Under the pieces are notes generated by a model that was not told the origin of the DNA, searched no databases, and saw only the letters and a program-made list of their open reading frames with translations. A stretch of DNA of 29,649 nucleotides from NCBI GenBank assembly GCA_963662665.2, contig CAXXJS010000041.1, forward strand, positions 1 to 29,649, given 5' to 3'. Position 1 is the first letter of the stretch; each line of letters opens with the position of its first letter. Shown here piece by piece: positions 10,155 to 26,783 of this stretch. The translations under genes were made by a program, and so were the position numbers. This DNA comes from Candidatus Latescibacterota bacterium. Lineage in GTDB: Bacteria > Latescibacterota > UBA2968 > GCA-2709665.

Positions 10155-11786
10155 TTGAAACGGACGATTATCATATTCTGTTGCCTTGTCCTTTGGAACG
10201 AAGGTGCGGCTGCCAGGGATTTTCTGGCGGAGATCGGCGACCATGGGGCTCGTGGTCGAGGCGATTCCGTGCTGGTCACGGCGCGGATGTTCGCAGAGAC
10301 GTTTCCGGATAGCGCAAATGCTCTTGGGGTTCTCGGCATGGTATTCGCTCAGATGGGACAGGCGAATGACGCAATCGGGGCATTTGAAAAGGCGATCGAG
10401 TTAGGGCCGAAATTGGATGGGCCTTACGACGCGCTTTTCAGGATTCATGTGCAACTTAACAATGGACGTGAGGCGTTGGCGGTGTTGAATGAAGGATTGC
10501 GTCAGATTCCGAATTCCGTCCTCTTGCTGAAGGACAGGGCAATGTTGTATCAGGAGGCCGGAAATCCGGGGCTGGCGGTGCAGGACCTCAGGGCTGCGAT
10601 TTCCGTGGATCCTCACAATATCGACGCGTACCAGTCCCTGGCGGCGTTGCACGTCGCGCTCAAGGACCCCAATAAAGCGCTTTCAGTTTTCGACCAGGGA
10701 TTGAAGGACAACCCTGAGAGCGTCGTCTTGATGATCAATCAGGGGCAGATCTACGGGGCCTTGGGTAAACCTCAGGATGCGAATCAGCTGTACCAACGGG
10801 CGATACTGGTTCTAGAAAGGGAATTGAAGGAGAAACCGAACGACGTTTCCCTGCTGGTGAACAAGGGTGCCATCTACCATTCGATGCGGCAAAGCAAGGA
10901 AGCTTTCGCCGCTTACCGGCAGGCGGTCTCCGTGGCGCCGGACGATCCCGAGGTGCACCGATCCATGGGTCAGATGGCGGCCGAGGTGGACTCACTGGAC
11001 GTCGCCCGGGAGGCGTGGGAGAATGTGGCACGGTTGGTTCCGGGCGATCTGGATACGCGGTCCGCGCTTGCCCGGCTGTATACGATTCAGAAGAGCTGGG
11101 ACCGGGCCCTGGAAGAGTATCGTCTGATTATGGAAATAGCTCCCGAGGCGGAACGGGCGCGCATCCAGTATGGCATCGCTCAGGTCTTTCTGCAGAAAGG
11201 AGACGCCGAACAGGCGAAGAAAGCGCTGGAGGAGACTATTCAATTGAACCCGGAGGTTATGGAGCCCTACGGAGACCTCGCCTTGATCTATGCGGGACAG
11301 CAGGACCTCGATTCGGCCATTGATGTGTATAACAGGGCATTGGCGGTGGATTCGACCAATGCGGGCGTGCACTACAATATAGGCCTTGCCCATACGTCAA
11401 AGCGGGAGTTTGACATGGCGGCGCAAGCCTTTTCAAAGGCCATTGCCTTCAGTCCGAACGAAGAGATCGAACGGGCGGCACAGATGAAGATTGACGAGAT
11501 TGAGGGGATACAGTCCGGTAAGCTCTGGGTATATCACATTCTGGTGGAAACTGAAGCGGTGGCGCAGGAAGTACTCCAGAAACTGAGGTCGGGTGAGGAT
11601 TTCAGGGAACTCGCCCGTGAACACTCCAATGATTCTTCAGCGGAGATCGGGGGCGACCTGGGGTTTTTTTCTCCGGGCGATCTGAATCCAGCATTTGAGG
11701 AAGCGGTGCTGAAATTGCAGGTGGGTGAGACCAGCGGGGTCGTTCAGACGCCGCTGGGATATCACATTATCAGGCGGCTGAACTGA
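10155..11786 (+). CDS. Secreted TPR-repeat protein with C-terminal parvulin (rotamase) PPIase domain
   Basis: GGAGG RBS and TTG start; signal peptide; about 10 TPRs; HILV...GEDFRELAREHSND..GGDLGFF...AFEEAV...SGVVQTPLGYHII. Confidence 0.9.
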   Translation: MKRTIIIFCCLVLWNEGAAARDFLAEIGDHGARGRGDSVLVTARMFAETFPDSANALGVLGMVFAQMGQANDAIGAFEKAIELGPKLDGPYDALFRIHVQLNNGREALAVLNEGLRQIPNSVLLLKDRAMLYQEAGNPGLAVQDLRAAISVDPHNIDAYQSLAALHVALKDPNKALSVFDQGLKDNPESVVLMINQGQIYGALGKPQDANQLYQRAILVLERELKEKPNDVSLLVNKGAIYHSMRQSKEAFAAYRQAVSVAPDDPEVHRSMGQMAAEVDSLDVAREAWENVARLVPGDLDTRSALARLYTIQKSWDRALEEYRLIMEIAPEAERARIQYGIAQVFLQKGDAEQAKKALEETIQLNPEVMEPYGDLALIYAGQQDLDSAIDVYNRALAVDSTNAGVHYNIGLAHTSKREFDMAAQAFSKAIAFSPNEEIERAAQMKIDEIEGIQSGKLWVYHILVETEAVAQEVLQKLRSGEDFRELAREHSNDSSAEIGGDLGFFSPGDLNPAFEEAVLKLQVGETSGVVQTPLGYHIIRRLN

Positions 11787-13042
11787 TGGCTGCGCGTTTC
11801 GCACAAATGGGCGGCGAGGCTGGTGTATCGTCGCCCGTTTTGTACGTCGGTAAGGGCGAAAAGAGGGTCAAGGTGCTATTCCTGACGGGATGTACGGGGC
11901 GGGGAGGCGCGGGGAACAGCCTCTTTTATCTTTTGAAACATATCGATCCTTCGATGTTCGAGCCCCTGGTCGTAATGCCAAACGAAGGCGTGTTGAAGCG
12001 CAGGCTTGTGGAAAACCGGATCCGATACCGAATTGAACCCCGTCTGAAGGAACGTCTGGCGGAGATGCGGTTCCGGAGACAGACCCGAGTCTGCAGAATC
12101 GCGTCGGTGGTTCTGAATGCCATCGACAGCGTGCGGTTTACGTTCGATCTGATTCGCCTGATCCCGCAAGAGCGTGTTGCGTTGATCTATTGCAACCAGA
12201 TGATGGTGAAACTCATGGGCACCGTGGCCGGAATGGTGTGCGGCACTCCGGTCGTCTGGCACTGCCGCACGCTTTACGGAAAATCCTTCAGGGGCTGGTT
12301 TTTCGACGGGCTCGCGCGGTCTGTTACCGTGAGGAGAATTGTCGCGGTTTCCGAGGCGTGCGCCGGAAATTTCCCGTCGGCTGAAGAGAAGGTACGTGTC
12401 GTATACAACGGCGCGGACCTGGTCAGTTTCGACCCGGACAGCGTTCAGGGGTGTCTCCGTGGCAGGTACCGAATCGGACCGGACGAAGTGGTACTTGGCT
12501 TTGTCGGCCGTATTGTCGCATGGAAGGGAATCGATACCCTGCTGTCTGCGATGGAGCTTGTCCTGGCCCGGCGTAAGGACGTGGTTCTCGTGGTTGTCGG
12601 AGGGAGCCCGCAGCGGTCGTTTAATCTGCTGGATCACTATCGTCGCAACGTGGCCAACGGGCGGTATTGTGGCAGGGTCGTGTTTACAGGATTCCGTACC
12701 GACGTTAGACCATATTTGAAGGATATGGATGTCACCCTTGTCCCGTCGGTGGCCCCCGACCCCTGTCCTCGAAGCGTCATCGAATCTCTGGCATTGGGCA
12801 CTCCGGTGGTTGGGTCTGCGATTGGCGGCGTTCCTGAACTGATCCGCGATGGATACAACGGATTTCTGGTGAAGCCGAACGACGTGGCCGGCTTGGCTGA
12901 CACGATCCTCAGGGTGATTGAGAATAGGGAATTGCGAGAACGTATGGGTTCGGCCGCTCGGGTTTCAGCGGTTCAACGCCACGACGCAGTCGAAGTAGCC
13001 CGGCGCGTGCAGTCCATTATGTTTGAGGCCCTGCGTCATTAG
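11786..13042 (+). CDS. Glycosyltransferase family 4 (GT-B)
   Basis: GGAG, VYNG, FVGRIVAWKG, FTGFRTDV, DPCPRSVIES (D/E-x7-E), GGVPELI; TGATG overlap with the upstream gene. The start could be later (about 11872). Confidence 0.9.
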   Translation: MAARFAQMGGEAGVSSPVLYVGKGEKRVKVLFLTGCTGRGGAGNSLFYLLKHIDPSMFEPLVVMPNEGVLKRRLVENRIRYRIEPRLKERLAEMRFRRQTRVCRIASVVLNAIDSVRFTFDLIRLIPQERVALIYCNQMMVKLMGTVAGMVCGTPVVWHCRTLYGKSFRGWFFDGLARSVTVRRIVAVSEACAGNFPSAEEKVRVVYNGADLVSFDPDSVQGCLRGRYRIGPDEVVLGFVGRIVAWKGIDTLLSAMELVLARRKDVVLVVVGGSPQRSFNLLDHYRRNVANGRYCGRVVFTGFRTDVRPYLKDMDVTLVPSVAPDPCPRSVIESLALGTPVVGSAIGGVPELIRDGYNGFLVKPNDVAGLADTILRVIENRELRERMGSAARVSAVQRHDAVEVARRVQSIMFEALRH

Positions 13043-13213
13043 ACATGTGCCGGAGATTCACTCTTCGGTGGCACGGCATTCGCTGTTAATATACAGATTA
13101 TGCAATCGAAAAAACCGGCTCGAATGAAATTATCTTTAATATATACAAGTATTTTTCTGGATTTTTTGCATAAACTGACGCGCCGAAAAACCGGGAGGGC
13201 GACGGGAGATGTG

Positions 13214-13242
13214 TTGCAAATTTCCCACACGTGTGGTAAAAT
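13214..13242 (+). promoter_or_regulatory. Putative sigma70 promoter (extended -10) at the head of the TolC cluster
   Basis: TTGCAA-17 nt-TAAAAT with TG-n before the -10, and an AT-rich upstream tract. Confidence 0.5.
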
Positions 13243-14593
13243 GTCACAGCGGTTTTTGCTTCCCGTTTCAACTGTGCTGATCTGCGTGATGGGGATAGGA
13301 ATCCGTCCATGTTACCCGGGATCCGGACACGGTCGATACGATCTGACCTCGTGCGTACGGATGGCACTCGTGTCAAGTCCGTCGATACTGGCCGCCAATG
13401 CAGATCTGGAGATCGCTGAGAATAGGCTCAGGCAGGTACATGCGGCTCGATTTCTTCCTCGATTGGATCTGTCGTTGACGTTAGGCCCCTCGCCGGAAGC
13501 CCGGGGGGACGCCATTACAGGGGTCAGTAATTGGCGGCAGATAAGTGTGTTTACGAGAACCGAACTTTCGCTGGTTCAGCCACTCTTCACCTTCGGAAAG
13601 CTCGATGCAGCGGTAGAAGCGGCATCAGGCGGGATCGGCGCGCAGCGCGCCGGACTTGAGAGGTCCCGATTCGACTTGGAGCAGCAGGTCGCCAGGGCCT
13701 ACTATCTGCTGCTATTGGCAAATCAGCTTCGGGCCCTGGCACATGAGTCCCGGGCGGAGATCGACCGGGCACGTCGAACGATCGCGGAAAAGCTGGAAGC
13801 CGATACGGGGGATTTTACGTATACGGATCTGCATCGTCTTGACAGGTTTGTGTACGACGTGGAGGAAAATGTAAACAAGGTTGTCAAGAGTCAGGCACTC
13901 GCACGTTCGGCGCTCCGAATTCTCATCGGACTTTCTCAGTCCGATTCTCTTGTTCTCGCCGACGGAAGTCTGAAGCCGGTTGACGTTCAGATCCGTCCAC
14001 TGGAGCATTATCGGTCGCTTGTCGACGGGCGACCGGACCTGGGTCAGCTTCGTGAAGGGCTGCGGGTTCGGTCGGCACAGGCGCGTGCCGTCCGAACCGA
14101 CCTGTTTCCGCAGGTTTTTCTGGCCGGGCGGTTCAAATACGGGTTTGCGCCGAACAGGGACCGCCAGCGGAACCCGTTTCTGAAAGACGAGTTCAACGTG
14201 ACAGAGTTGGGCGCCGTGCTTGGCTTCCGGCAGTCACTGTCATTCGCGAGTACGAGAGCGAAGGTTAAGGAAGCCCGTCTGGCCTACGAAAAACTCAGCT
14301 ATCAGGCGCAACTGGCAGTACAGGGCGCCCGGCTGGAGATCGAACACGCCTATCGGTCGCTCATTGAGGCGGAAGCTAACATCGGGGCGGCGCGAAAGGC
14401 CCGACGCGCCACGAGGCGGTGGTTTGTTTCGGCGAGAGATGGGTTTAATGCGGGGTTGGAGGAGGCGGGCGAGATGGTCGATGCAGTCAAGGAATACAGC
14501 ATTATCCGCGCCAAGTACTATCAGTCGGTGTTGGAGTTTAATCTGGCCTGGGTCGCATTAAGGCGCGCAACGGGAAATTCGATTCTGAAGTAA
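13241..14593 (+). CDS. TolC-family outer-membrane efflux protein
   Basis: Two OEP repeats (FLPRLDL..QPLFTFGK; RPDL..LFPQVFL); VARAYY helix; ends ALRRATG. Start uncertain (13241 or somewhat later). Confidence 0.85.
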   Translation: MSQRFLLPVSTVLICVMGIGIRPCYPGSGHGRYDLTSCVRMALVSSPSILAANADLEIAENRLRQVHAARFLPRLDLSLTLGPSPEARGDAITGVSNWRQISVFTRTELSLVQPLFTFGKLDAAVEAASGGIGAQRAGLERSRFDLEQQVARAYYLLLLANQLRALAHESRAEIDRARRTIAEKLEADTGDFTYTDLHRLDRFVYDVEENVNKVVKSQALARSALRILIGLSQSDSLVLADGSLKPVDVQIRPLEHYRSLVDGRPDLGQLREGLRVRSAQARAVRTDLFPQVFLAGRFKYGFAPNRDRQRNPFLKDEFNVTELGAVLGFRQSLSFASTRAKVKEARLAYEKLSYQAQLAVQGARLEIEHAYRSLIEAEANIGAARKARRATRRWFVSARDGFNAGLEEAGEMVDAVKEYSIIRAKYYQSVLEFNLAWVALRRATGNSILK

Positions 14594-14608
14594 CAGGGGG
14601 AGGGCGTC

Positions 14609-16048
14609 ATGGTAAGTAAGGCAGTGATAATTGCTGCCGGTATGGGTAGTCGCCTGAACGGGCACGGTTACGGTCAGCCAAAGCCGCTGGTGAAAGTGGC
14701 CGGCGTCGGATTGCTGAAGCGGGCTATATTGACCTCGAAACGGGCCGGTATTGTCGAGTTTGCCATTGTTATCGGACATCGAGGCGATGAGATACGCGAA
14801 GCCATTGAAGGCGATCCGCAGATCGACGTGTACATAGATTGGATTGAAAACCCGGAATGGACGCGTGGCAACGGCCTTTCCGTCCTCAAAGCCCGGGATC
14901 GGGTGGAGGGTCCGTTTCTTCTGCTGATGGCGGACCACCTGTTCGAACCGGAGGTAATCACCCGTATGCGGCGCCTGTTACTGAGCACCGGCGAATCGGC
15001 GCTTTGCGTTGACACCCGGCTTGACCGGATTCAGGATCTGGACGATGCAACCAAAGTCGTCCTGGATGGCGAACGGATTCTGCAGATAGGCAAATCGCTG
15101 GGCCGATATGACGCGGTGGATACCGGCATATTTCTCTGCAGCCCGGCGCTGTTTGACGGGCTTGAGCATTCTGTCGCCAATGGTGACGAAACGCTCTCGG
15201 GGGGTGTCCGTGTGCTGGCATCGCGAGGAGACATGCGGGCAGTGGAAATCGACGGCCTGTTCTGGCAGGACGTGGATACCCCGGAAGCATTGCTCCAGGG
15301 AGAACGGGCGTTGTTCGGCCGGTTGGGCAAGCCGACCGACGGGATTGTCTCGCGCAATTTCAACCGGAAGATCTCCTCCTGGATTTCCAGACTATTGGTA
15401 AGAACGCCGGTGACGCCCAATCAGATATCGATCGCTACGATGCTGGTGACCTTTCTTGCCGGCTGGGCGGTGGCGGAAGGTGGCCATTTCCACGTGGCGG
15501 TGGGGGGACTGCTGTTCCAGTTCGCTTCAATTGTGGATGGGTGCGACGGGGAGATCGCCAAGCTCAAGTTTGCAGGGTCGCGCCTTGGGGAATGGTTGGA
15601 TACGGTGGCGGACAACGTGTCCTATCTGGCTTTTTTTTCCGGTGTCATCTACGGCATGTACAAATTGACAGGCGAACAGGTCATGGTCGCCCTGGGATTC
15701 ATAGCCCTCGCCCTGGACGTACTGGCGGTTCTGCTCATCTGCGTGTACCTCAAGCAGAGTGGGTCGGGCAGTATTGTGAGCTTCAATATGGGTTTTTCCA
15801 GCGAGGTTCCCGAAGAGCGCCGCGGACATTTGCACCGGATCTATTGCGGACTCAAGTTCGCTTGCCGTCGAGACTTCTTTGCGGCTTTGTTCTGTGTCCT
15901 TGCGGTATTGAATTGCCTGGAAGCGATCTACTGGATCTTTGTACTCGGTTCCGGACTGGTAGTAAGCGCAATTTTCGGGTTTATCGGTCATATTATGAGA
16001 ACCCGCACGGCAGAGGCGGACAAACTGATCTCGGGAAAGGCGGATTGA
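14609..16048 (+). CDS. Bifunctional NTP-transferase (IPCT-like cytidylyltransferase) / CDP-alcohol phosphotransferase (DIPPS-like)
   Basis: N-terminal IIAAGMGSRL..PKPL, GNGLS, MADH, DATKV, VDTGIF, WQDVDT; C-terminal DGIVSRNFNRKIS, TPNQIS, DGCDGEIAK..GEWLDTVAD; GGGGGAGG RBS. Confidence 0.9.
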   Translation: MVSKAVIIAAGMGSRLNGHGYGQPKPLVKVAGVGLLKRAILTSKRAGIVEFAIVIGHRGDEIREAIEGDPQIDVYIDWIENPEWTRGNGLSVLKARDRVEGPFLLLMADHLFEPEVITRMRRLLLSTGESALCVDTRLDRIQDLDDATKVVLDGERILQIGKSLGRYDAVDTGIFLCSPALFDGLEHSVANGDETLSGGVRVLASRGDMRAVEIDGLFWQDVDTPEALLQGERALFGRLGKPTDGIVSRNFNRKISSWISRLLVRTPVTPNQISIATMLVTFLAGWAVAEGGHFHVAVGGLLFQFASIVDGCDGEIAKLKFAGSRLGEWLDTVADNVSYLAFFSGVIYGMYKLTGEQVMVALGFIALALDVLAVLLICVYLKQSGSGSIVSFNMGFSSEVPEERRGHLHRIYCGLKFACRRDFFAALFCVLAVLNCLEAIYWIFVLGSGLVVSAIFGFIGHIMRTRTAEADKLISGKAD

Positions 16049-16163
16049 TGAGGGAGGTGGATGCAGGGAAACTACCGGAGGAATTGAACGGGTATCGAGC
16101 CGGCCGGAGAGGTGTCCCTTCGCCGGATCGTTTTGTTTCTGAACGCAAAAGGAACTGGAAAAA

Positions 16164-16787
16164 ATGAGAACATTATCATATATTATTGTGTTTTATGCCT
16201 TTGGCGGGTCTATAAGTGAAGGCTTCGCACAAGATGTAGATCAGGCGGTCGTGCTGCTGGAGATAATGAAATCTCGCGACAGGTCAATTAAGGCAATTGT
16301 GAATTCGGAAACCGCGGGAGAAACGGCCGAAGAAAGGGAGAAACTGAGGGCGATCGTCGAAAAAATGTTCGATTTCCACCGGTTCAGCAGGGTCGCCCTG
16401 GGCCGTCACTGGCAGCGGCGCACCGAGGCCGAGAAGGCTGAATTCGTGGACCTGTGCAGGCGTCTGATCGTCAAGAATTACGCGGATCCGAAGCTGTACA
16501 CGAAATCCGAGAAAATCGATTACGTGAGTTCAGGGGTCGACAGCACGGAAGGTGTGGTTCGGACAATCGTCCATTATAAGGATGAGCAGAGCCACATTGA
16601 CTACAAGCTCCACCCCGTCAACGATATGTGGCTGGTATATGATATGGTTATTGACGATCTGAGCGTTGCCAGAAATAATCGATCCCAGTTCTACAAGGAA
16701 ATCCGCAAGTCGTCGTACGAGGGCCTTGTAAGGAAACTCAGAGACAAGCTGAACGAGGACGAGGCAGACGGGAAAGGGAAGGGATGA
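16164..16787 (+). CDS. MlaC/Ttg2D (HpnM-like) periplasmic lipid-binding protein
   Basis: Signal peptide; FDFHRFSRVALGRHW, IDYKL, WLVYDMVIDDLSVARNNRSQF. Confidence 0.88.
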   Translation: MRTLSYIIVFYAFGGSISEGFAQDVDQAVVLLEIMKSRDRSIKAIVNSETAGETAEEREKLRAIVEKMFDFHRFSRVALGRHWQRRTEAEKAEFVDLCRRLIVKNYADPKLYTKSEKIDYVSSGVDSTEGVVRTIVHYKDEQSHIDYKLHPVNDMWLVYDMVIDDLSVARNNRSQFYKEIRKSSYEGLVRKLRDKLNEDEADGKGKG

Positions 16788-16790
16788 TTC

Positions 16791-19238
16791 ATGCAGGATA
16801 GGTTGAGGTTTCTGGCGGACTTTGTCTATAGACGACACGCCATCATTCTTGTTGTTTCGACTCTCCTTTCGATTTTTTGCAGTTTTTTTGTCTATCGTCT
16901 GATCCAGCGCCTCGAGACGGATATCGCTGCGCTGATTCCGGAACACTATCCCAGCGTGAAGACGCTGGAAGATATCAAGGCGCGGCTGGGTGGCGTGGGA
17001 AGCCTGGTTGTTCTGGCGGAGTGTGAGGATTTCTCCGCGTCCAGGCGATTCGTGGAAGATCTGGATGTTGAACTGAAGGCCGAAAAATATTGGAAATACG
17101 TAAATTACGTCGATTTTAAGCGTGAAGTGGATTTTTTCAAAGAAAACGCGCTTTTATATATGAATCTTGAGGACCTGGAGGAAATCCAGTTTCGCATCGA
17201 TGATCGCATACGGCAGGAAAAACTGAAGCTGTCCCCGTTGTTTTTCAGTCTCGACGAAGAAGAAGAAGACGAACCCCTGGATTTTTCGGATATCGAGTCG
17301 AAGTACAAAGAGAACGGAGACCGCGGGCACGAAGTTTATTATACCAATCCGGACAGTACCATCGTTGCCGTGGAGGTGACCGCATCGGGAACGGTGAGCA
17401 ATATTGGATTTGCCAAGGAGATGTACGGCGTAATCCAGAATGCCGTTCAGACGCTGGAACCCGGATCCTATCATCCCGGCCTGACGATCTCCATTGGAGG
17501 ATCGTACAAGAATAAAATCGATGAATACAACGTCATTCTGGACGATATCGCGTCGACGGTGATTTTTGGATTTGTCGGTGTCGTCTTGCTCCTCACGTTT
17601 TATTTCAGGCAGCCGCTGGCTGCCTTTTTTGTTGCCATCCCGCTCGTTATGGGGCTGACGTGGGCTTTTGCCATTACCTATTGGGCGATTGGCAACCTGA
17701 ACACAATGACCGGATTCCTGTTCGTGATTCTGTTCGGTCTGGGAATTGATTTCGGCATTCACATGTTTTCCCGGTATCTGGAAGATCGAATGGCGAACAT
17801 GGACGTCAGGCGTTCGGTCGAGACGATGTTGATCCAGACGGGTCAGGCCATCCTGACGGCCGCGCTGACCACCTCGATGGCGTTCTATTCGCTGACGATA
17901 ACGGATTTCAAGGGATTTTCGGAATTCGGCTTTATCGTCGGCACGGGAATCATCATGTCGTTGGTATCAATTACAATGGTACTACCGGCCTTTCTCGTTC
18001 TTGCCGACGAGCGCCTGAAGCTCGTGCGGATGCGCCATGTGCTTGGACATCACCGGGGCTCCAGTAAGGGCCGGTTTCCGATGGCGCCGGCCGTGTTCGC
18101 GGTTACAATCGCCGTTACGGTCTACCTGGCATACAATCTCGACCGGATCCAGTTTGAATATGATTTCACCAACTTGCGTTCCAATCTTGCGACTTCGAAG
18201 CAGGTGAAAGACAAGATCAATTCGCTCTCGAAATTCAGGGGCGAGTCGCATTCCCCAAGTGTAGTACTGGCCGACAGTAAAGAGGAGCTGAATGAAATCG
18301 TCGATGCGGTAAACGGCAAGATCACATCCGACGATCCAACGCCGACAATTGACAAGATCAGAACGCTTTCGTCCTTTCTTCCCCAGCAGGAGGACGAGAA
18401 ACTGGCGTTGATCGCCGAACTTCGCGAACTGGTGGACGGTGAAGGCGCGAAATTGCTGAAAGGCGAGCAGAAGAAGCGAGTGGACGAGTTGCGCGAAATG
18501 ATGGACGTGAAAAAGCTGACGGTGGACGACCTGCCGAAGAACATCCTTCGCAAGTTTGCAACGGTCGACGGCAGCCGTGCCCATTTTGCCTTCATCTATC
18601 CCAGCGTGCAACTTCGAGACGGACGACAGGCAATTGAGTTTGCAGACGACACCCATTTGATTACGACCGAATCCGGAAAGGCCTTTTATTCCTCCAGTTC
18701 CAGTATCATATTCGCGGATATGCTCAAACTGATGATCCGGGACAGCAGGTGGGCGATTGGCATCACACTTCTGGTCGTCTTCTTGATCGTGTTTATCGAT
18801 TTCAGAAGCATCCGAAACGGGCTGCTGGTCATGTTGCCGTTGATCTGCGGCGCCATCTGGATGTGCGGAAGCATGTTTCAGACCGGGATGAAGTTGAACT
18901 TCTACAATATGGTTGCCTTGCCCACCATCATTGGGATGGGCATCGATAACGGCGTGCATCTGTTCCACAGGTATCAGGAGGAAGGCGCGGATTCGATGCC
19001 GGTAATCCTCCGGAATACGGGAGGCGCGATGCTGGTATCGATGATGACGACGATGATCGGTTTTTTCGGCTTGATTACGGCAAGGCATCCCGGCTTGAAT
19101 TCCATTGGGAAACTGGCCGTGATCGGACTTCTGACCTGTTTTGTGGCGGCCGTGATTGTCCTGCCTGCGGTACTCGAGATTCTGGATCGAATCAAGCGGA
19201 AGCGGGGTTCGGTCAGAGTCGGGAGTGCGCGGCCGTAA
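16791..19238 (+). CDS. MMPL / HpnN-like RND-superfamily lipid transporter
   Basis: Two halves, each with 1 TM, a periplasmic loop and 5 TM; GLGIDFGIH and GMGIDNGVH motifs; 815 aa. Confidence 0.9.
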   Translation: MQDRLRFLADFVYRRHAIILVVSTLLSIFCSFFVYRLIQRLETDIAALIPEHYPSVKTLEDIKARLGGVGSLVVLAECEDFSASRRFVEDLDVELKAEKYWKYVNYVDFKREVDFFKENALLYMNLEDLEEIQFRIDDRIRQEKLKLSPLFFSLDEEEEDEPLDFSDIESKYKENGDRGHEVYYTNPDSTIVAVEVTASGTVSNIGFAKEMYGVIQNAVQTLEPGSYHPGLTISIGGSYKNKIDEYNVILDDIASTVIFGFVGVVLLLTFYFRQPLAAFFVAIPLVMGLTWAFAITYWAIGNLNTMTGFLFVILFGLGIDFGIHMFSRYLEDRMANMDVRRSVETMLIQTGQAILTAALTTSMAFYSLTITDFKGFSEFGFIVGTGIIMSLVSITMVLPAFLVLADERLKLVRMRHVLGHHRGSSKGRFPMAPAVFAVTIAVTVYLAYNLDRIQFEYDFTNLRSNLATSKQVKDKINSLSKFRGESHSPSVVLADSKEELNEIVDAVNGKITSDDPTPTIDKIRTLSSFLPQQEDEKLALIAELRELVDGEGAKLLKGEQKKRVDELREMMDVKKLTVDDLPKNILRKFATVDGSRAHFAFIYPSVQLRDGRQAIEFADDTHLITTESGKAFYSSSSSIIFADMLKLMIRDSRWAIGITLLVVFLIVFIDFRSIRNGLLVMLPLICGAIWMCGSMFQTGMKLNFYNMVALPTIIGMGIDNGVHLFHRYQEEGADSMPVILRNTGGAMLVSMMTTMIGFFGLITARHPGLNSIGKLAVIGLLTCFVAAVIVLPAVLEILDRIKRKRGSVRVGSARP

Positions 19239-19308
19239 TCCGTTGCACAGCAGGATTTCGTTCGATTACCGGGCGCCCGCCGCGTTGACGCTATTCTATA
19301 TTCCTTCC

Positions 19309-20109
19309 ATGAATTTCTGGTTCCCATTTTTCGTCAGTTTGATTTCAGGTTTATACACCTCATTGTGGGGTGCGTTCAAGGACTCTCCTTATGAGGGACT
19401 GAAGCGGCACACGTTTCCCCGCAGCGTTTACTTTCATGCCGTTATATTTTGTGCGCTTTATTGGCTGCCAATGTTTGAAGTCGGTTTTCGTAAACTGAGC
19501 CCGTTCCAGGTTTTCTTTGCCATTATGGGCCTGGAACGGTTTCTCGCGGAGCTATACAAGGGGTTCTTCAGATCGGAGGAACAGTCAAAATACGCAGTGC
19601 CGTCCAGAATTACGTTTTTCGGCCGGCCGGTTACTAGCGAACCGTTACGACGCTTCGCTGGCGTCGTTCTGGTGTCGGGTGTCTTTTCGCTGCTGTTTCT
19701 TTCCGTGCGAATCGAGGATTTTACGGGATTCGCCGCGGTCGCCTTTTCCACGGGAATGCTGGTTTCTCTCGGAGGGGCATACAAAGACGCTCCCTTCGAA
19801 GGATTCGCCCCGCTGAAGTTCTTCCGCTCGGCAACGGTGTTGGCCATTTGTTCCCCCTTGTTTTTCTATTCAAACAATCCCCTATCTCCGGTGCCGCTCG
19901 GTTATCTGATCTTTATGTACGGCGGACTGGAGCGGTTTCTGGTTGAGTATTACAAGACCTACGTGCAGCGAACCATGTCAGGCAAGTTCAGACCCGACCT
20001 GCCGCGGATCACCCGATATATCGAGACTCGCGAGAAATTCCATTATATGGCGTGGACTATCATTGTCGGTCTGACGATTCTGTACGTTTATGAACTCACG
20101 TCCCTATGA
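19309..20109 (+). CDS. Uncharacterised integral membrane protein with internal duplication (266 aa)
   Basis: Repeats GAFKDSPYEG..GLERFLAELYK and GAYKDAPFEG..GLERFLVEYYK; about 8 hydrophobic segments; overlaps the GMC gene by 20 nt. ATG 19309 avoids overlap with the RND gene. Confidence 0.8.
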   Translation: MNFWFPFFVSLISGLYTSLWGAFKDSPYEGLKRHTFPRSVYFHAVIFCALYWLPMFEVGFRKLSPFQVFFAIMGLERFLAELYKGFFRSEEQSKYAVPSRITFFGRPVTSEPLRRFAGVVLVSGVFSLLFLSVRIEDFTGFAAVAFSTGMLVSLGGAYKDAPFEGFAPLKFFRSATVLAICSPLFFYSNNPLSPVPLGYLIFMYGGLERFLVEYYKTYVQRTMSGKFRPDLPRITRYIETREKFHYMAWTIIVGLTILYVYELTSL

Positions 20110-21586
20110 AGCAATTGTTATCGGGTCCGGTCTGGGAGGCGGCGCTGCGGCGTATGCGCTCAGCCGGGCGGGCTTTCGGACGCTCCTGCTCGAACGCGGC
20201 GGGTGGGTGAAGCGGGATGCGCTGGACTGGAGCCCGCGCAGGATCCTGATTGATCAACGATACAAGAGCCGTTCGCCGTTGGCCGTTGAAGGTGACCGAG
20301 GCCATCAGTCTGTCTATCCGAATGAAGTGGTTGGCGGAATGTCGGTCTTTTACGGAGGCGCGTCGCTGCGGCTGCGCGAGAAGGATTTCTCGCATTGGCC
20401 GATTGATTACGCGGAAATAGAGCCTTATTATACGCAGGTGGAGCATCTGCTGGAGGTGCACGGCCAGGCGGGGGTGGACATGCACGAGCCGCCGAGGTCC
20501 GGTGCGTATGCATTCGGAGGGATAGACCTGGCGCCTCCGGCGAAGCGAATATACAAAGCCGCGAAGTCGCTCGGGCACCGTCCCTTCAAGATTCCGCTGG
20601 CGCTGAATTTCACGAATAAGGATCGGCCAACGTGTATCCGATGTTCCACATGCGACGGATTTCCGTGCCGGGTCGAAGCCAAAAACGATGTGGCGATGAC
20701 GCTTCTGGCAAGAGCGCAGGCATACGATCTGGTTGTCATGCCCGGGATGATCGTACTGCAGCTGGAGACGGAGTGCGGGAGGGTTGTACGGGTGCGATGC
20801 CTGGACGGGACTTCGAAGCGGGCGGTTGATTTCAGTGCAAAGATCGTGATTCTGAGCGCTGGAGCCCTGCAGAGCCCGGCTATTCTATTGCGTTCAGGGC
20901 TGGAACGATACGACAACCACCGGCTGGTCGGCAGGTTTCTGATGCGGCACTGCAATGCGGTGGTTACCGGTCTCTTTCCGTTTCGGACCAATCCGGACGG
21001 TGTGTTTCACAAGCAGTTGTGCCTTACGGATTTCTACGAAGACTTGAGGGACCTGCTGGACACTTCAGTAGGGACGATTCAGGATATCTACACCCCGGCG
21101 CCTGAGGTGCTGAAGCACTATGCGCCTTTCGGGTACGGAAGCTTGTCAGCACTTGTAGCGAACTACGTTCAAAATCTACTTTGCATCGCGGAGGACGATC
21201 CACAATTTGAAAATCGAGTGCATCTGACCACTCGCCGTGACGAATACGGAATCGCGGTCACCGGCGTCGCTCATCGATATTCGGATGGAGACCGCCTCCG
21301 CAGGAAATATTTGACAGACAGAGCCAAACGCATTTTGAGGCAGGCAGGCGGCCTCTACAACCGCGTTTACAAACTGGATACATTCTCCCACGCCGTGGGT
21401 TCGCTGCGTTTCGGCAACCACGCCCCGGACAGTGTTCTCGATGAATCCTGCAGGTTTCGCGGCATCGACAATCTGTTCGTCCTTGACGGCAGTTTTATGC
21501 CCACTTCGGGAGGGGTGAATCCGAGCCTTACGATCGCGGCCAACGCGTTACGGGTCGTGGATGTCATCCACGCGGAATATGGTTAG
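20090..21586 (+). CDS. GMC-family FAD oxidoreductase
   Basis: VIGSGLGG Rossmann motif, VGGMSVFYGG, CIRCSTCDGFPC, SHAVGSLRFG, NPSLTIAANALRV. Confidence 0.92.
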   Translation: MNSRPYEAIVIGSGLGGGAAAYALSRAGFRTLLLERGGWVKRDALDWSPRRILIDQRYKSRSPLAVEGDRGHQSVYPNEVVGGMSVFYGGASLRLREKDFSHWPIDYAEIEPYYTQVEHLLEVHGQAGVDMHEPPRSGAYAFGGIDLAPPAKRIYKAAKSLGHRPFKIPLALNFTNKDRPTCIRCSTCDGFPCRVEAKNDVAMTLLARAQAYDLVVMPGMIVLQLETECGRVVRVRCLDGTSKRAVDFSAKIVILSAGALQSPAILLRSGLERYDNHRLVGRFLMRHCNAVVTGLFPFRTNPDGVFHKQLCLTDFYEDLRDLLDTSVGTIQDIYTPAPEVLKHYAPFGYGSLSALVANYVQNLLCIAEDDPQFENRVHLTTRRDEYGIAVTGVAHRYSDGDRLRRKYLTDRAKRILRQAGGLYNRVYKLDTFSHAVGSLRFGNHAPDSVLDESCRFRGIDNLFVLDGSFMPTSGGVNPSLTIAANALRVVDVIHAEYG

Positions 21587-21658
21587 ATACCCGCTGCACG
21601 GCGGCTGGTCGGGTTCAGTTGGTCAGGACCTGACGCCCCGGTCCATGGAACACGGAAA

Positions 21659-22594
21659 ATGAAGAAAATCTGTCTGGTGGGCTGCGGGACCATCGCACGG
21701 CTGCACGCGAAGAATCTATCGGGTGCCGCCGAACTTTTTTTCTGCAGTCGATCCGAAGAAAGCGCCCGGCGTTTCAACATTGAATTTCGTGGTAGCGGCA
21801 TCTTCAGCCGTTTGAAGGATGCGCTGGCATCGCCGGAAGTGGACGCAGTCGTGATCGCATCCCCGCCTGCGTTCCATAAGGACCAGGTGGTTGACGCGCT
21901 GTCAGCAAATAAGGCTGTACTGGTCGAAAAGCCGATGTGCGTCTCGCCGGCGGAGTTGGCGGCGGTTGAAACAGCGGTGGCGAAACATCCGGAAACGCCG
22001 TTGATGGTGGCCGAAAACTACTATTACAAGCCACTCCTCAAGAAAATCAGGTCACTCACAGGGGAGTCCGGCATTGGAGACATCAGGTCGATATTGGTGA
22101 AAAAGCAGTTTACGCAGTCCACATTCGGCTGGAAACGTCAGTACGGCGCGTTGCTGGAAGGCGGCATCCACTTTGTCGCGTTGATATCCGCGTTGTTTGA
22201 GCGTGCACCGGAACGCGTCATTGGACGCTTTCCCGGACGCCGCGAGGGACAGCCGGAGCGGTCATCGGTCACAAAGCTGATCTATCCCGGCGACGTGACG
22301 GCAGAGTTGAGGTATTCGTGGAACACGAGGAGTCGCACACGGGGCACCTTCCAGCATTCCCGGATTCGCGGTACGCAGGGCCGGATCATTTTTGAGAGCA
22401 ATGGCCTCTACGTACTCCGGACCCGTGACCGCGGTGTCCGTCTGTACTTTCCCGGGATGTCGGATCTGATGGGGTATCGGGAGATGACCCGGGATTTCCT
22501 GTGTTGTCTTGAAGATCGCAGCCGGAAGCCGTATTCGGACTGTCCGAGGGCCAGCCGGGATCTGAGAGTCGTGTTTGATGCCTACGGTTGCTGA
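21659..22594 (+). CDS. Gfo/Idh/MocA-family NAD(P) oxidoreductase
   Basis: VGCGTIA, DAVVIASPP..H, VLVEKPM, GALLEGGIH. Confidence 0.92.
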   Translation: MKKICLVGCGTIARLHAKNLSGAAELFFCSRSEESARRFNIEFRGSGIFSRLKDALASPEVDAVVIASPPAFHKDQVVDALSANKAVLVEKPMCVSPAELAAVETAVAKHPETPLMVAENYYYKPLLKKIRSLTGESGIGDIRSILVKKQFTQSTFGWKRQYGALLEGGIHFVALISALFERAPERVIGRFPGRREGQPERSSVTKLIYPGDVTAELRYSWNTRSRTRGTFQHSRIRGTQGRIIFESNGLYVLRTRDRGVRLYFPGMSDLMGYREMTRDFLCCLEDRSRKPYSDCPRASRDLRVVFDAYGC

Positions 22595-22644
22595 TAACGG
22601 CGCGCTGATGCGCCTGAACGGCCTTTTCAGGATATCCTCGCATT

Positions 22645-22687
22645 GAATACGAAAATTCTTGACCGTATTCGTGCATGTCACTATATT
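22645..22687 (+). promoter_or_regulatory. Putative sigma70 promoter with overlapping inverted repeat
   Basis: TTGACC (22659-22664)-17 nt-TATATT (22682-22687); GAATACG-N12-CGTATTC at 22645-22670 straddles the -35. Confidence 0.55.
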
Positions 22688-22900
22688 GTCGGGCGAACGC
22701 TTCCCCGACCTCTCCCTTCCCCGGTATCAATCCTTCTCACCGATTTTTCCAGAACGAATTTAGCCGAGTGTCCGGTCCACCTTCGGAACGGATACGATTG
22801 CCGCTGCCAGATTGCGCATACAAGGTGGCGCTACGCCATGGGGTGAAGCTCTCGAAGATAGAGCGGTGTCCAAGCCCCGTCGAAGCCGGGGGTCCTGCCG

Positions 22901-23944
22901 GTGAACGATCGTTTAAAGACGTATCTTGAGTCTTTTGTACCACTGATTGATGCGGAGTTGTTCAAGTTTCTGCCTCAAGCCGAACCGCTCAGCTACCTGT
23001 ACGAACCGATGCGGGACTATCCGATCCGGGGTGGCAAGCGGTTCCGGTCTGTACTGGTGTTGCTGTCATGCGAGGGGTTGGGAGGTGTGGTGCAAGAGGC
23101 ATTGAGGACGGCGGCGGCCTTTGAGATGTTCCAGTCTTTTGCTCTGGTACACGACGATATTGAAGACGGGTCGGAGATGCGAAGGGGTAAACCCTGCCTC
23201 CACCACCTCCACGGCGTGCCACTGAGCGTAAACGCAGGCGATGCGCTACACTCGAAGGTGTTCGAGATTCTAGCTTCCAATCGGGAGATTCTCGGCGATG
23301 CCGTGGCGCTTGATCTGATACAGGAGATGCTTTACGGAGCGCAGCGAACATTTGAAGGACAGGCTTACGATATAGGTTGGATCGAGTCGGGCGAGGTCCC
23401 CGAAGTCGGAGTTTTCCTGGAAATGCTACGTCTGAAAACGGGCTGGTACAGTGGCAGAGGTCCGTGTACCGCAGGTGCCATTGTGGCCGGCGCATCACCG
23501 GATTCACAGCGGGCTGTCGGCGCGTTTGGAGAGCGAATGGCGGTAGCGTTTCAGATCAAGGACGATCTGCTGAACCTGACGGTCCGGGCCGAGGATGCAC
23601 TCCACGCTCCCGCAACGACCTCCGGGGGATACGGCAAGGAACGCGGCGGAGACATTGCGGAGGGAAAGCGGACCCTGATGGTGATCGATCTCTTCCACCG
23701 CTGTTCATCGGCTGAACAGGCGTGGGTGCGGGAAATACTGAATCGGGATCGTTCCCAGACGAGAATGGAAGAGGTCGAGCGGACGATCTCGCTTATGGAG
23801 CATTACGGTTCGATCGAACGGGCCGAAGACGCATGCAGGGAATGGGCGGCGGCCGCGGAGGCACATCTGGACGAGATTCCGCCGTCGGATGCCCGGGAAA
23901 CTATGCGCGAAATGTGCAATTTTCTGGTTGACAGGGTATTTTGA
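22901..23944 (+). CDS. Short-chain polyprenyl diphosphate synthase (type I GGPP synthase-like)
   Basis: [23 protein letters not shown] (first Asp-rich motif), [26 protein letters not shown]. Confidence 0.92.
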
Positions 23945-24063
23945 GTCACCTGCGACCGGTACACGTACCGCCAAACGAGTTATCTGGAAATGTCATATGT
24001 AGTCTCACCGATTTTAGAGAATATCGAGTCTCCCTCGATAACCACGCTAAAGGAGGGCGAGCG

Positions 24064-24732
24064 ATGAAGTTCTTTATCGACACTGCCAATATGGACGAGA
24101 TCCGTGAGGCCAACGAAATGGGTGTCCTGGATGGCGTCACAACCAATCCAACGCATATTTCAAAGGAAGAAGGAGCATTCGAACAGATAATATTGGAAAT
24201 ATGTGAGTTGGTGGACGGTCCGGTAAGCGCCGAAGTCGTGAGTACCGAGTGGCGGTTGATGCTTCAGGAAGCACGGCATCTGGCAAGCATTCACGACAAC
24301 GTGGTCGTAAAGGTTCCAATAACGCTGGACGGGTTGAAGGCGATCAAGGCCTGCAGCGATGAAGGGATCAGGACCAACGTGACGCTGTGTTTCTCCCCAA
24401 ATCAGGCACTGCTGGCCGCAAAGGCGGGAGCGGCCTATATCAGTCCCTTTCTGGGACGCCTGGACGATATCGGGCATGTCGGGATGGACCTGATTAAAAC
24501 CATACGGCAGATATACGACAATTACAGTTTCCGAACCGAAGTCCTGGCGGCCAGCCTTCGACATCCCCTCCATGTCATCGACGCGGCTCGAGCCGGAGCC
24601 GATGTGTCCACGTTGCCTCCTGACGTGCTGAAGAAGCTGTTGGCGCACCCGTTGACGGATGACGGCCTGGAGCGGTTTTTAAACGATTGGAATGCGTGGA
24701 AGGAAAGTCGGCGGGAGACCGTTGTTGTATAG
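24064..24732 (+). CDS. tal: Transaldolase (small TalC/Fsa-type)
   Basis: [39 protein letters not shown]. The Glu and Phe residues favour transaldolase over F6P aldolase. AAGGAGG RBS before ATG 24064. Confidence 0.93.
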
Positions 24733-24764
24733 GCCGTCGATATCTGGCGAACGAAACTGCCAAC

Positions 24765-24808
24765 AACGAAAAAGGGCTTGTGTATCCAAACACACAGGCC
24801 CTTTCGTT
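24765..24808. terminator. Intrinsic terminator hairpin between convergent tal and tRNA-Thr
   Basis: AACGAAAAAGGGCTTGTGT...ACACAGGCCCTTTCGTT; the U-tract is strongest on the minus strand. Confidence 0.7.
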
Positions 24809-24812
24809 TGCG

Positions 24813-24888
<76 letters not shown>

Positions 24889-24935
24889 TAAGGCAATGAA
24901 AAACAGATCATTATCTTCTATAACGCGGCGCGTAT

Positions 24936-24964
24936 AAAATACATAGGCGCTGGTTGCATGTCAA
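24936..24964 (-). promoter_or_regulatory. tRNA promoter
   Basis: TTGACA-17 nt-TATTTT followed by a GC-rich discriminator-like stretch (atacgcgccgcg). Confidence 0.6.
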
Positions 24965-24974
24965 GGGTAATTCT

Positions 24975-26249: not shown

Positions 26250-26305
26250 TGCCCTACGAATACGGATCCGGGTTGGCTTCGCCCGGAAAACCCTTCGAAA
26301 CCGAC

Positions 26306-26344
26306 AGCAAAAAGGCTTCGGGAAGAACCCGGAGCCTTTTTGCT
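26306..26344. terminator. Bidirectional intrinsic terminator
   Basis: AGCAAAAAGGCTTCGGG-aagaa-CCCGGAGCCTTTTTGCT between convergent genes. Confidence 0.8.
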
Positions 26345-26372
26345 TGTTTTTGCCGGAGAGTGCCCTGTTTCG

Positions 26373-26783
26373 TCACTTCGGCTTGAATTTTCGCAATTGG
26401 GGCCGGATTGACTCGACGATGATTGGGACGGACGGCGTTCCGAGTATACGCAGCTTGTAGTCGATGTTGGGGTTTGGTCTCACAAGGGGCATGTTGTACG
26501 CCAAACCGAAACCGGAGTTGGCAATCGGCATGTAATCCAGCGGGGACCTCGGTACCAACAGCCTCTCAATGGCAATTGTCAATTGATGCTTCTCAAGATC
26601 CCGTTTTCGATTAAACCTCTGTCGTAACCCCTTCAACCTTCCAGGGGTGGAAGGACCATCCGCTCCTCGTGGTGGCCGGGTTTTCAGCGAATCGGCCGGC
26701 GCCGGCGGCGCTCCAACCGCCGGTTCCGCGAAAAAAAGCACAGAGACAACAACCGAAAGTGTGCGGAAGAAGATGCCGGGCAT
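26373..26783 (-). CDS. Hypothetical secreted protein (136 aa)
   Basis: GGAGG RBS before ATG 26783; signal peptide MPGIFFRTLSVVVSVLFFAEPAVG; ends just before the terminator. Confidence 0.6.
   Translation of the reverse strand: MPGIFFRTLSVVVSVLFFAEPAVGAPPAPADSLKTRPPRGADGPSTPGRLKGLRQRFNRKRDLEKHQLTIAIERLLVPRSPLDYMPIANSGFGLAYNMPLVRPNPNIDYKLRILGTPSVPIIVESIRPQLRKFKPK

Follow-up and report, generated by a model that had tools for sequence, protein, structure and literature searches.

What is made, and where might it be sent, by a row of seven genes that places a nucleotidyltransferase-phosphotransferase fusion among lipid-transport and redox genes in Candidatus Latescibacterota bacterium (assembly GCA_963662665.2, contig CAXXJS010000041.1)? 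The window analysed here is the whole 29,649-bp contig (C41) of this metagenome-assembled genome, and the host genome comprises 4.86 Mb and is 92% complete. An earlier note on this DNA had proposed one undescribed system for lipid synthesis, modification and trans-envelope export. Genes were called from the open reading frame (ORF) listing together with Pfam and NCBIfam scans of 19 window ORFs. These confirmed the seven co-oriented, tightly packed genes described in that note, all on the + strand between 13241 and 22594, with intergenic gaps of 15, 115, 3, 70, -20 (an overlap) and 72 nt in that order:

13241–14593 (ORF open from 13100), + strand: TolC-family outer-membrane factor (OEP; Pfam OEP 127 bits, two stretches)
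14609–16048, + strand: long-form IPCT/DIPPS-like fusion of a cytidylyltransferase and a CDP-alcohol phosphotransferase with six transmembrane (TM) helices (Pfam, NCBIfam, 4MND match)
16164–16787, + strand: periplasmic MlaC/HpnM-like lipid carrier (Pfam MlaC 116 bits)
16791–19238, + strand: HpnN-like MMPL/HAE3-type RND transporter (Pfam MMPL, two stretches)
19309–20109 (ORF 19156–20109), + strand: MEMB, an internally duplicated 8-TM membrane protein of 266 aa (no family)
20090–21586, + strand: GMC-family FAD dehydrogenase with a Cys cluster (Pfam GMC N- and C-terminal domains)
21659–22594, + strand: Gfo/Idh/MocA NAD(P)-dependent sugar or cyclitol oxidoreductase (Pfam)

The seven genes are two evolutionary modules and not the one indivisible system that had been proposed. 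Module A (13241–19238) comprises the OEP, the long-form fusion, the MlaC/HpnM-like carrier and the HpnN-like MMPL RND transporter. Module B (19309–22594) comprises MEMB, the GMC dehydrogenase, which is of the Fe-S type, and the Gfo/Idh/MocA enzyme; this trio occurs alone in a sister family and in other lineages, and is absent from some genomes that have module A. We tentatively favour, as a reading that falls a little short of probable, that a phosphotransferase dependent on CDP-inositol forms an amphiphile bearing inositol phosphate, that an HpnN/MlaC/OEP route exports it, and that the redox trio was joined to this set in this order of bacteria. For this reading we infer CDP-inositol as the donor, a lipidic acceptor, the direction of transport and the participation of module B in this pathway.

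The fusion enzyme carries the first part of the argument. It had been taken for an IPCT/DIPPS-type fusion, and this identification held. Pfam NTP_transf_3 and CDP-OH_P_transf domains span residues 5–140 and 269–378, respectively, and the protein matches the IPCT/DIPPS structure from A. fulgidus (4MND) over residues 3–362 with an E value of 8e-50. The score against model NF041135 is 253.5 bits for a cut-off of 580, covering profile positions 2–343 of 419 and ending at residue 367. The gene is single-copy in the host genome, and its product is 41–46% identical to classical IPCT/DIPPS over residues 4–367. A homologue scan with one genome per species yielded 80 loci, 54 with the classical short form and 26 with the long form. 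Similarity of the classical forms ends near residue 367 in 51/54 loci; L022, L023 and L025 match the fusion to about residue 450 yet fall on the classical side of the tree. The long-form loci match the fusion over nearly its whole length, L033 being truncated by a contig end. A quick, unrooted maximum-likelihood tree took in 86 homologues, namely that of the window, those of 77 loci from the homologue scan (the incomplete L029, L033 and L062 being left out) and those of eight further genome regions. In this tree all 33 long-form rows and the 53 classical enzymes lie on opposite sides of a branch with an SH-like approximate likelihood ratio (SH-aLRT) support of 100. OEP/MlaC genes are nearby in 27 of these long-form rows, five have only radical-SAM and/or HpnL-like genes, and one has another neighbourhood. 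The gene ino1 lies directly upstream in 28/54 classical loci, whereas it is beside the long form in 0/26, and OEP, MlaC or MMPL neighbours were found in 0/54 classical loci.

A column-by-column comparison of 16 long-form representatives with 53 classical sequences locates the divergence between the two forms. Of the 235 positions compared in the cytidylyltransferase domain, both forms conserve 50 identically and none is switched. Within the last helices (TM4–6), two positions are common to both forms and 18 are conserved in the classical form only. Three positions of these helices are switched from the classical to the long form (K to G387, Y to S388 and R to F424), each time from a charged or polar residue to a small or hydrophobic one, and the long form no longer has the charged residues that classical enzymes conserve in their acceptor-side helices. 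The accessible text of Clarke et al. (PMC4634129) places the acceptor pocket between TM4 and TM6, from which the switched and lost residues would line this pocket. The signature DxxDGxxAR...GxxxDxxxD retains seven of its eight residues (D310, D313, G314, A317, G327, D331 and D335). The signature Arg is Lys in the window fusion and Val, Thr or Leu in other long-form members; judged from sequence, catalysis despite the Arg to Lys change is plausible. Hydropathy indicates about six TM helices, as in classical DIPPS, and an additional polar insert of ~ 40 residues (roughly 381–425). Because the cytidylyltransferase core is shared while the acceptor-side helices diverged, we infer that the donor chemistry would be the classical one (CDP-inositol) and that the acceptor would be different and non-phosphorylated.

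These comparisons bear on the alternative that the fusion has kept the synthesis of a compatible solute, di-myo-inositol phosphate or one related to it, and that the adjacent transporters serve another purpose. Such an enzyme would be expected to resemble the classical ones to the degree seen over residues 4–367, to share the cytidylyltransferase core fully and to have the same number of TM helices, and ino1 is available in the genome. It would not be expected to form a separate clade, to have its conserved acceptor-side residues lost or switched to uncharged ones, to lack ino1 adjacency at every long-form locus or to keep transporter genes adjacent across at least four phylum-level lineages, and we regard solute synthesis as decidedly improbable. 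In summary of the likeness to the bifunctional IPCT/DIPPS of hyperthermophiles (4MND, NF041135), the two-domain chain, the cytidylyltransferase core, seven of eight signature residues and about six TM helices are common to both, but the window fusion departs in score, clade, signature Arg, acceptor-side residues and polar insert, and it is accompanied by OEP, MlaC and RND genes and not by ino1.

The second part of the argument is the conservation of the neighbourhood, which the earlier note had suggested checking. The order OEP-fusion-MlaC-MMPL-MEMB is kept in 13/13 Latescibacterota loci (L003–L015; fusion identity 61–90%; L006 is cut inside MEMB by a contig end), which is beyond chance, and the long-form clade is accompanied by OEP, MlaC and MMPL genes in several phyla. 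Of these Latescibacterota loci, 12 extend beyond MEMB and all 12 have GMC; Gfo follows it in seven of them (L003, L004, L005, L007, L008, where it is partial, L013 and L015) and does not in five (L009–L012 and L014). An LPG_synthase_TM/HpnL-like gene is located upstream of OEP in L007–L015, directly so in 8/9 and ~ 7 kb off in L014. These LPG_synthase_TM relatives score best to HpnL (135 bits, cut-off 196) and pass a "flippase-like" model. Locus L007 presents one continuous row of HpnL-like, OEP, MlaC-DUF3047, fusion, MlaC, MMPL, MEMB, GMC and Gfo genes. The window contains no LPG-synthase-like gene; such a gene lies beside the fusion or OEP in L007–L015, L019, L050 and L070.

Beyond these loci, surveys covered 151 genomes of the phylum, 81 of the class and 41 of the KSB1 phylum. 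Full-length fusion was detected in every phylum-sample genome of families f1 (18/18) and f2 (30/30), and all 64 genomes of the sister family f3 have only diverged or split fusion matches. Three of the four f3 genomes examined contain a cluster of NTP-transferase, fusion-like (28% identical), HpnL-like, OEP, MlaC-DUF3047, MlaC and MMPL genes; therefore, the association of the enzyme with OEP, MlaC and RND outlasts deep divergence. Gemmatimonadota-type loci (L016–L018 and L020) combine the fusion with a methyltransferase, a Wzx-like flippase of the MOP/Wzx type, a paralogous CDP-alcohol phosphotransferase, OEP, DUF3047, MlaC, a phosphodiesterase of the alkaline-phosphatase superfamily and a radical SAM protein. 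The Calditrichaceae locus L075 holds the fusion, a radical SAM gene, a CDP-alcohol phosphotransferase paralogue, a Wzx-like flippase, MMPL, MlaC-DUF3047 and OEP, and L078 and the KSB1 locus L082 hold the fusion, a radical SAM gene, MlaC-DUF3047, OEP and MlaC. Loci labelled Pseudomonadota, Nitrospira and Myxococcota have only an HpnL-like gene and/or a radical SAM gene beside the fusion. Transporter adjacency to the long form is kept, in all, across at least four phylum-level lineages. For the radical-SAM partners in other lineages no NCBIfam model exceeded its cut-off. A fusion paralogue of ~ 425 aa with a CDP-alcohol phosphotransferase domain accompanies the fusion at L020:13764–15035 and L075:13304–14605, and no NTP-transferase family was detected in the N-terminal half of these two proteins. 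A literature search of incomplete coverage found no description of this cluster.

The transport proteins form the third part. For the OEP neither the TolC nor the NodT subfamily model reaches its cut-off. Its start is placed near 13241, where distant orthologues cover 87–93% of the long ORF and a hydrophobic N-terminus follows ATG 13241. The MlaC-like protein has an N-terminal signal-like sequence (read by eye) and scores 63 bits against HpnM TIGR03481 (cut-off 160.1); its gene ends 3 nt upstream of the RND gene. The RND protein scores 331.8 bits against HpnN TIGR03480 (cut-off 751.85), 209 against NF052374 (cut-off 1100), 226 against BstA and 207 against HAE3, and its orthologues, 40–93% identical, are found beside MlaC and OEP in other loci. 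The accessible text of PMC12324291 proposes an HpnL/M/N trio for hopanoid export, which the signal-like MlaC and the HpnL-like partners in relatives match. As in that system (TIGR03476, TIGR03481 and TIGR03480), an HpnN-type RND adjoins an MlaC-like protein in the window and HpnL-like proteins occur in relatives. Unlike it, the window proteins score far below the model cut-offs (332/752 and 63/160 bits for HpnN and HpnM) and the relatives' HpnL-like protein scores below its own (135/196 bits for HpnL), the outer-membrane partner is of the TolC family and not the MlaA-like HpnS, a head-group enzyme is embedded, and the host and its class lack the squalene-hopene cyclase gene shc. Neither shc nor another hpn gene was detected in the window by Pfam or NCBIfam, as the earlier note had stated. 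No HlyD/MFP membrane-fusion adaptor domain was found in the 19 window ORFs scanned, which together with the MMPL/HAE3 type of the RND sets the window apart from tripartite RND efflux pumps. Unlike the Mla phospholipid system, the window holds only MlaC; neither MlaFEDB nor MlaA was found in a search confined to the window.

Two further genes on the same strand flank the cluster and enter the choice of cargo:

11786–13042, + strand: GT4 glycosyltransferase, accessory neighbour upstream of the cluster (Pfam Glycos_transf_1 and Glyco_transf_4)
22901–23944, + strand: short-chain isoprenyl diphosphate synthase, cluster membership uncertain (Pfam polyprenyl_synt; IdsA-like 209 bits, below cut-off)

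The GT4 gene lies just upstream of the cluster, where the earlier note had located it. No NCBIfam model exceeded its cut-off for the protein (MshA, 87 bits). Within or next to the cluster GT4 genes are found more than once, as in the window and in L009, where a GT4 gene unrelated to that of the window stands between fusion and MlaC. Together with the HpnL-like flippase-family gene that precedes OEP in relatives and the MOP/Wzx flippase, second CDP-alcohol phosphotransferase, methyltransferase and alkaline-phosphatase-superfamily phosphodiesterase of other-lineage clusters, they would suit an envelope glycoconjugate, in which phospho-inositol, or a different phospho-polyol, from the fusion serves to decorate or polymerise a glycolipid of the surface or a teichoic-acid- or capsule-like polymer that is then flipped and exported. 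Against this, no Wzx, polymerase or chain-length genes were found by Pfam among the window ORFs, and the window-type GT4 is kept upstream of OEP only in the four closest loci (L003–L006). MlaC carriers and HpnN RND pumps are, moreover, generally known for single lipids and not for polymers, and we consider a glycoconjugate product quite unlikely.

The host inventory bears on the possible precursors. The gene ino1 is present, as the earlier note had suggested checking, on a different contig from the fusion (C10). This only host copy (L083, G000:C10:305000–324000) lies among transposase genes (DDE_Tnp_1, DDE_Tnp_1_4 and IS21-type) beside a LysR regulator and far from any inositol-using gene. Serine palmitoyltransferase, which that note had also named, was not found in the host, where all models for it score below their cut-offs. 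A ceramide acceptor was considered and rejected, as the alpha-oxoamine synthases of the host are only BioF (462 bits) and Kbl (603 bits), and an archaeal-type lipid was likewise rejected, with no GGGPS in the host (PF01884 only 21.7 bits, below cut-off). No PF13243 match above cut-off represents shc in the 92%-complete host genome, and 5/81 class genomes have only weak partial matches of 26–31 bits; no squalene-hopene or oxidosqualene cyclase was matched in the host genome or its class. An operon hpnE-hpnD-hpnC was unexpectedly located at G000:C24:1611–4719 on the − strand (locus L109), with scores of 390 (hpnE), 303 (hpnD) and 326 bits (hpnC), all above the NCBIfam cut-offs. Judging from these genes, squalene appears to be made in the host without a known cyclase. 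A group II intron reverse transcriptase/maturase (L109:8718–10088; 354 bits, above cut-off) is encoded a few kb from hpnCDE.

The squalene genes raise the alternative that the HpnL/M/N-like set moves squalene itself or a squalene- or polyprenol-derived lipid and that the fusion places phospho-inositol on an isoprenoid alcohol and not on a glycerolipid. Within the class HpnC follows the full-length fusion: it was found in 17/18 genomes of f1, 28/30 of f2 and 0/64 of f3, and in f4 both HpnC and full-length fusion occur in G112 and neither in G107. G001, G002 and G003, too, carry hpnC and hpnD in tandem and have no cyclase, and the isoprenyl diphosphate synthase gene follows the cluster, though only in L003–L005, L007 and L095. 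The same distribution also speaks against the link. Family f3 keeps OEP-MlaC-MMPL and a fusion-like gene without HpnC, HpnC does not exceed its cut-off in G004 or G005, both of which have the cluster, and other phylum families have long-form matches without it (G009, G015, G020 and G035; E values of 1e-149 to 1e-167). The co-distribution is confounded by kinship, hpnCDE lie on a different contig from the cluster, and the only hydroxyl of hydroxysqualene would be removed by HpnE. An isoprenoid cargo is improbable in our estimate, and the isoprenoid link is a lead and not a finding, because HpnC is missing from f3, G004, G005 and the other long-form families.

Two described systems assist in placing module A. 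A Bacteroides vulgatus/Prevotella cluster with an NTP-transferase and a CDP-alcohol phosphotransferase has been proposed, without confirmation, to act in a CDP-inositol (Kennedy-type) lipid route (Heaver et al. 2022, PMC9246714). Likened by gene content, it shares these two enzyme types with the window and an LPG-synthase-like (BT_1521-like) neighbour with the window's relatives. As far as the accessible text of that paper goes, its enzymes are separate, lie beside ino1 with an HAD hydrolase and are reported with no RND, MlaC or OEP, whereas in the window the enzymes are fused, ino1 is on C10, no HAD gene is present and export genes are. In Caulobacter, according to the accessible part of 10.1101/2025.01.09.632243, the nucleotidyltransferase CpgD activates the phospho-alcohol that serves as head group of ceramide diphosphoglycerate, an anionic lipid of the envelope; it differs from the window in head group and in its sphingolipid backbone, the window host having no serine palmitoyltransferase.

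Under the favoured reading of an exported inositol-phosphate amphiphile, inositol-1-phosphate would be supplied by ino1 from elsewhere in the genome and converted to CDP-inositol by the N-terminal domain of the fusion. In a Kennedy-type reaction on the cytoplasmic side of the inner membrane, the membrane domain would then pass phospho-inositol on to an alcohol that is non-phosphorylated and probably lipidic. The HpnN-like RND protein would take up the product, the MlaC/HpnM-like carrier would ferry it and the TolC-family protein would receive it at the outer membrane, with an HpnL-like flippase-family protein also involved in relatives. Module B would be a cytoplasm-facing polyol or sugar dehydrogenase set, in which GMC and Gfo work on, or are docked to, MEMB and most likely oxidise or epimerise the polyol head group or its precursor.

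The proteins of module B were characterized individually. The internal duplication of MEMB, claimed in the earlier note, is evident, with halves 36% identical over 90 residues (E 2e-11). Its likely start is ATG 19309, as orthologues align with no more than the final 84% of ORF 19156–20109. MEMB has no Pfam or NCBIfam family, and a profile search of 1.84 billion proteins returned 311 representatives at E ≤ 0.001. Two copies of the motif K-D-x-P-x-E plus E-x-x-K are present, both invariant. An alignment that reaches down to 26% identity retains K24, D25, P27, E29, R38, E81 and K84 and the repeat counterparts K159, D160, E164, E213 and K216, and contains no invariant His or Cys. Topology assigned by hand comprises eight helices with the conserved polar loops on the positive, cytoplasmic side. 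The AlphaFold model (pLDDT 92.3, pTM 0.90) has no fold match in the PDB by Foldseek (best E 0.12). Comparison with 48,161 chains by VIA-align gave a best Z score of 5.1, for an adenylyl cyclase membrane domain with a root-mean-square deviation of 5.8, so that neither search assigned MEMB to a family, and an ESM Atlas search gave only unnamed clusters, scored 0.91–0.94. Judging by the predicted model, MEMB is a new membrane protein family without a recognised fold. Among 12 longer representatives scanned, three are fused to a VTT/DedA domain and one to DUF3047.

The start of GMC overlaps the stop of MEMB by 20 nt in the window and in L003. Cysteines C182, C185, C188 and C193 are invariant in 15 GMC orthologues, in the pattern CxxCxxC(x4)C. 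The orthologue profile matches the catalytic subunit of FAD-glucose dehydrogenase (6A2U_B) over 3–498 (E 2e-53), with three Cys aligned, and that of fructose dehydrogenase (7W2J) over its full length (E 8.5e-44); the aligned Cys of these two structures we take to be Fe-S ligands. Like these membrane-bound dehydrogenases, the window GMC has a full-length catalytic subunit. Unlike them, it has a fourth Cys, its partners are Gfo and the 8-TM MEMB, and neither a cytochrome c nor a small Tat subunit was found by Pfam among the window ORFs. Because both subunits are lacking and the GMC protein has no signal peptide, it probably faces the cytoplasm. The Gfo enzyme scores 77.3 bits against IolG TIGR04380 (cut-off 355), over the N-terminal half only; its nearest solved relatives are sugar and inositol dehydrogenases, and all models are below cut-off. 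Its gene adjoins GMC in all seven stand-alone trios. In mycobacteria a lipid-linked sugar is epimerised by the flavin oxidase DprE1 and the NAD(P)H reductase DprE2. The protein families are unrelated and the comparison is an analogy only, of a flavin and NAD(P)H pair acting in turn on a membrane-bound polyol or sugar; a DprE-like scheme would explain the pairing of GMC and Gfo beside a membrane protein.

Several observations weigh against a single pathway leading to an exported inositol-phosphate lipid. The cluster contains no acyltransferase or other lipid-backbone gene by Pfam. We know of no way of working for a TolC-family protein without a membrane-fusion adaptor. As ino1 is nearly universal in the phylum (142/151 genomes, including families without the fusion, such as f10 with 9/13), its presence is a necessary condition that does not discriminate. 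The accessible text of PMC4634129 states that lipid-acceptor CDP-alcohol phosphotransferases usually carry 3–4 extra C-terminal helices; these are not seen in the hydropathy profile of the fusion, and the lipid-alcohol acceptor of the earlier note stays a conjecture. Within module A, insertion sequence (IS) transposase genes lie between fusion and MlaC in L014 (11667–12791) and L015 (11891–13053), and in G057 the OEP-fusion and MlaC-MMPL-MEMB parts are ~ 1 Mb apart. The trio MEMB-GMC-Gfo stands alone, with no module-A gene within 10 kb, in 4/4 f3 genomes (L090–L093), and as GMC-Gfo-MEMB in three other-lineage genomes (of L075, L078 and L082). Genomes with module A in which MEMB was not found are G001, G002 and those of genus g2 (0/2 with MEMB); one of the latter, G062, carries a radical-SAM gene immediately after RND, exactly in the place of the trio (L095:14233–15198). 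Xylose-isomerase-like TIM-barrel genes lie beside the f3 trios L090 and L093 and aldo-keto reductase genes at L090 and L092; the TIM-barrel neighbours suit a chemistry of cyclitols or keto-sugars and also the catabolism of sugars or inositol. The joined arrangement may stem from one or two ancestral events, the kin not being independent.

Many of these points suit the alternative of a module B without relation to module A. It would be a catabolic or respiratory unit that takes up and oxidises sugars or cyclitols, with MEMB as a permease or quinone-reducing anchor, and would lie beside module A only by descent in one order. The trio stands alone in 7/7 loci examined outside f1 and f2, its f3 neighbours include the TIM-barrel and aldo-keto reductase genes, GMC is similar to sugar dehydrogenases of the respiratory kind that have an Fe-S relay, and Gfo resembles inositol or sugar dehydrogenases. 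The counts of co-occurrence, all of which are inflated by kinship, point the other way. The modules are 3.4–5.9 kb apart in 22/24 f1 and f2 genomes compared by eye, the exceptions being G012 (10 kb) and G057. MEMB was detected in 109/151 phylum genomes, only in f1–f3, all of one class, in which every genome has a fusion or fusion-like match, and in the KSB1 sample it accompanies 4/4 genomes with the long-form fusion against 3/37 without. The one MEMB representative fused to DUF3047 carries a domain of module-A-type clusters, and the radical SAM protein that replaces the trio in G062 is of the kind that follows the fusion, being 46% identical to the one after the fusion in L030. We judge an unrelated module B to be somewhat unlikely. 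Taken together, the broader idea of lipid synthesis and export in the earlier note is supported in part, by the fusion identity, its clade context, the ino1 and shc status and the low HpnN and HpnM scores. Against it, the seven genes are separable, a lipid acceptor is conjectural, serine palmitoyltransferase was not found, and hpnCDE are present elsewhere in the genome.

The remainder of the window was also inspected. Promoter-like motifs had been said to bracket the cluster, and both exist:

13214–13242, + strand: sigma-70-like motif (9/12 matches; no evidence of function)
22659–22687, + strand: sigma-70-like motif (10/12 matches; no evidence of function)

The −10 element of the first (13237–13242) overlaps the OEP start ATG 13241. 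A promoter and terminator scan of 11500–26500 gave counts not above those of shuffled sequence, and the 11 promoter-like sites are not enriched over an expectation of 8.1 ± 2.9; because their count is within this expectation, the motifs were given no weight. A search of public sequencing runs for the stretch listed six, of DNA or unspecified type and from two studies, with no RNA run among them. The run of co-oriented + strand genes ends at a tRNA gene on the opposite strand (24816–24888, −; Rfam, 67.9 bits), which lies between fructose-6-phosphate aldolase and ceramidase-like genes and is the sole Rfam match in the window, with no riboswitch found. The ceramidase-like protein (24954–26249, +) matches weakly (57 bits) the N-terminal part of neutral/alkaline ceramidase. 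Its gene was considered as a member of the system and rejected, having at least 13 paralogues in the host genome, and because the family is multicopy to this extent the protein is unlikely to be a dedicated ceramidase. The sole strong terminator-like hairpin in 11500–26500 (26306–26344, +), a 17-bp stem followed by a T-run, is 3′ of this gene. Elsewhere the window encodes a 757-aa TPR protein with a GWxTD domain (4431–6704, +) and a 913-aa protein with a weak heparinase II/III-like C-terminal domain (26897–29638, −).

To our knowledge, cultured representatives are few or absent in Latescibacterota, KSB1 and many groups of Gemmatimonadota and Calditrichota, and very little has been learnt about the lipids of their envelopes. 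In its widest form, which we rate as quite doubtful, the locus would represent an undescribed envelope-lipid pathway of several FCB-type phyla and shc-negative bacteria, in which phospho-inositol is placed on a non-glycerolipid alcohol (for example, one derived from squalene or polyprenol, with hpnCDE and the neighbouring prenyl synthase as its source), remodelled by redox enzymes anchored on a new fold and delivered in HpnL/M/N-like manner through an adaptor-free TolC-family protein. In the favoured form, a single-copy, conserved cluster predicts an inositol-phosphate lipid made by a CDP-inositol (Kennedy-type) route, which has so far only been proposed, for Bacteroidota. The trio MEMB-GMC-Gfo is tightly conserved and brings a new membrane protein family with a confident model. 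If the proposed export is true, HpnN/HpnM-type lipid export would operate in non-hopanoid organisms, which would widen the cargo range of these transporters, and a TolC-family protein would have a role in lipid delivery without an adaptor.

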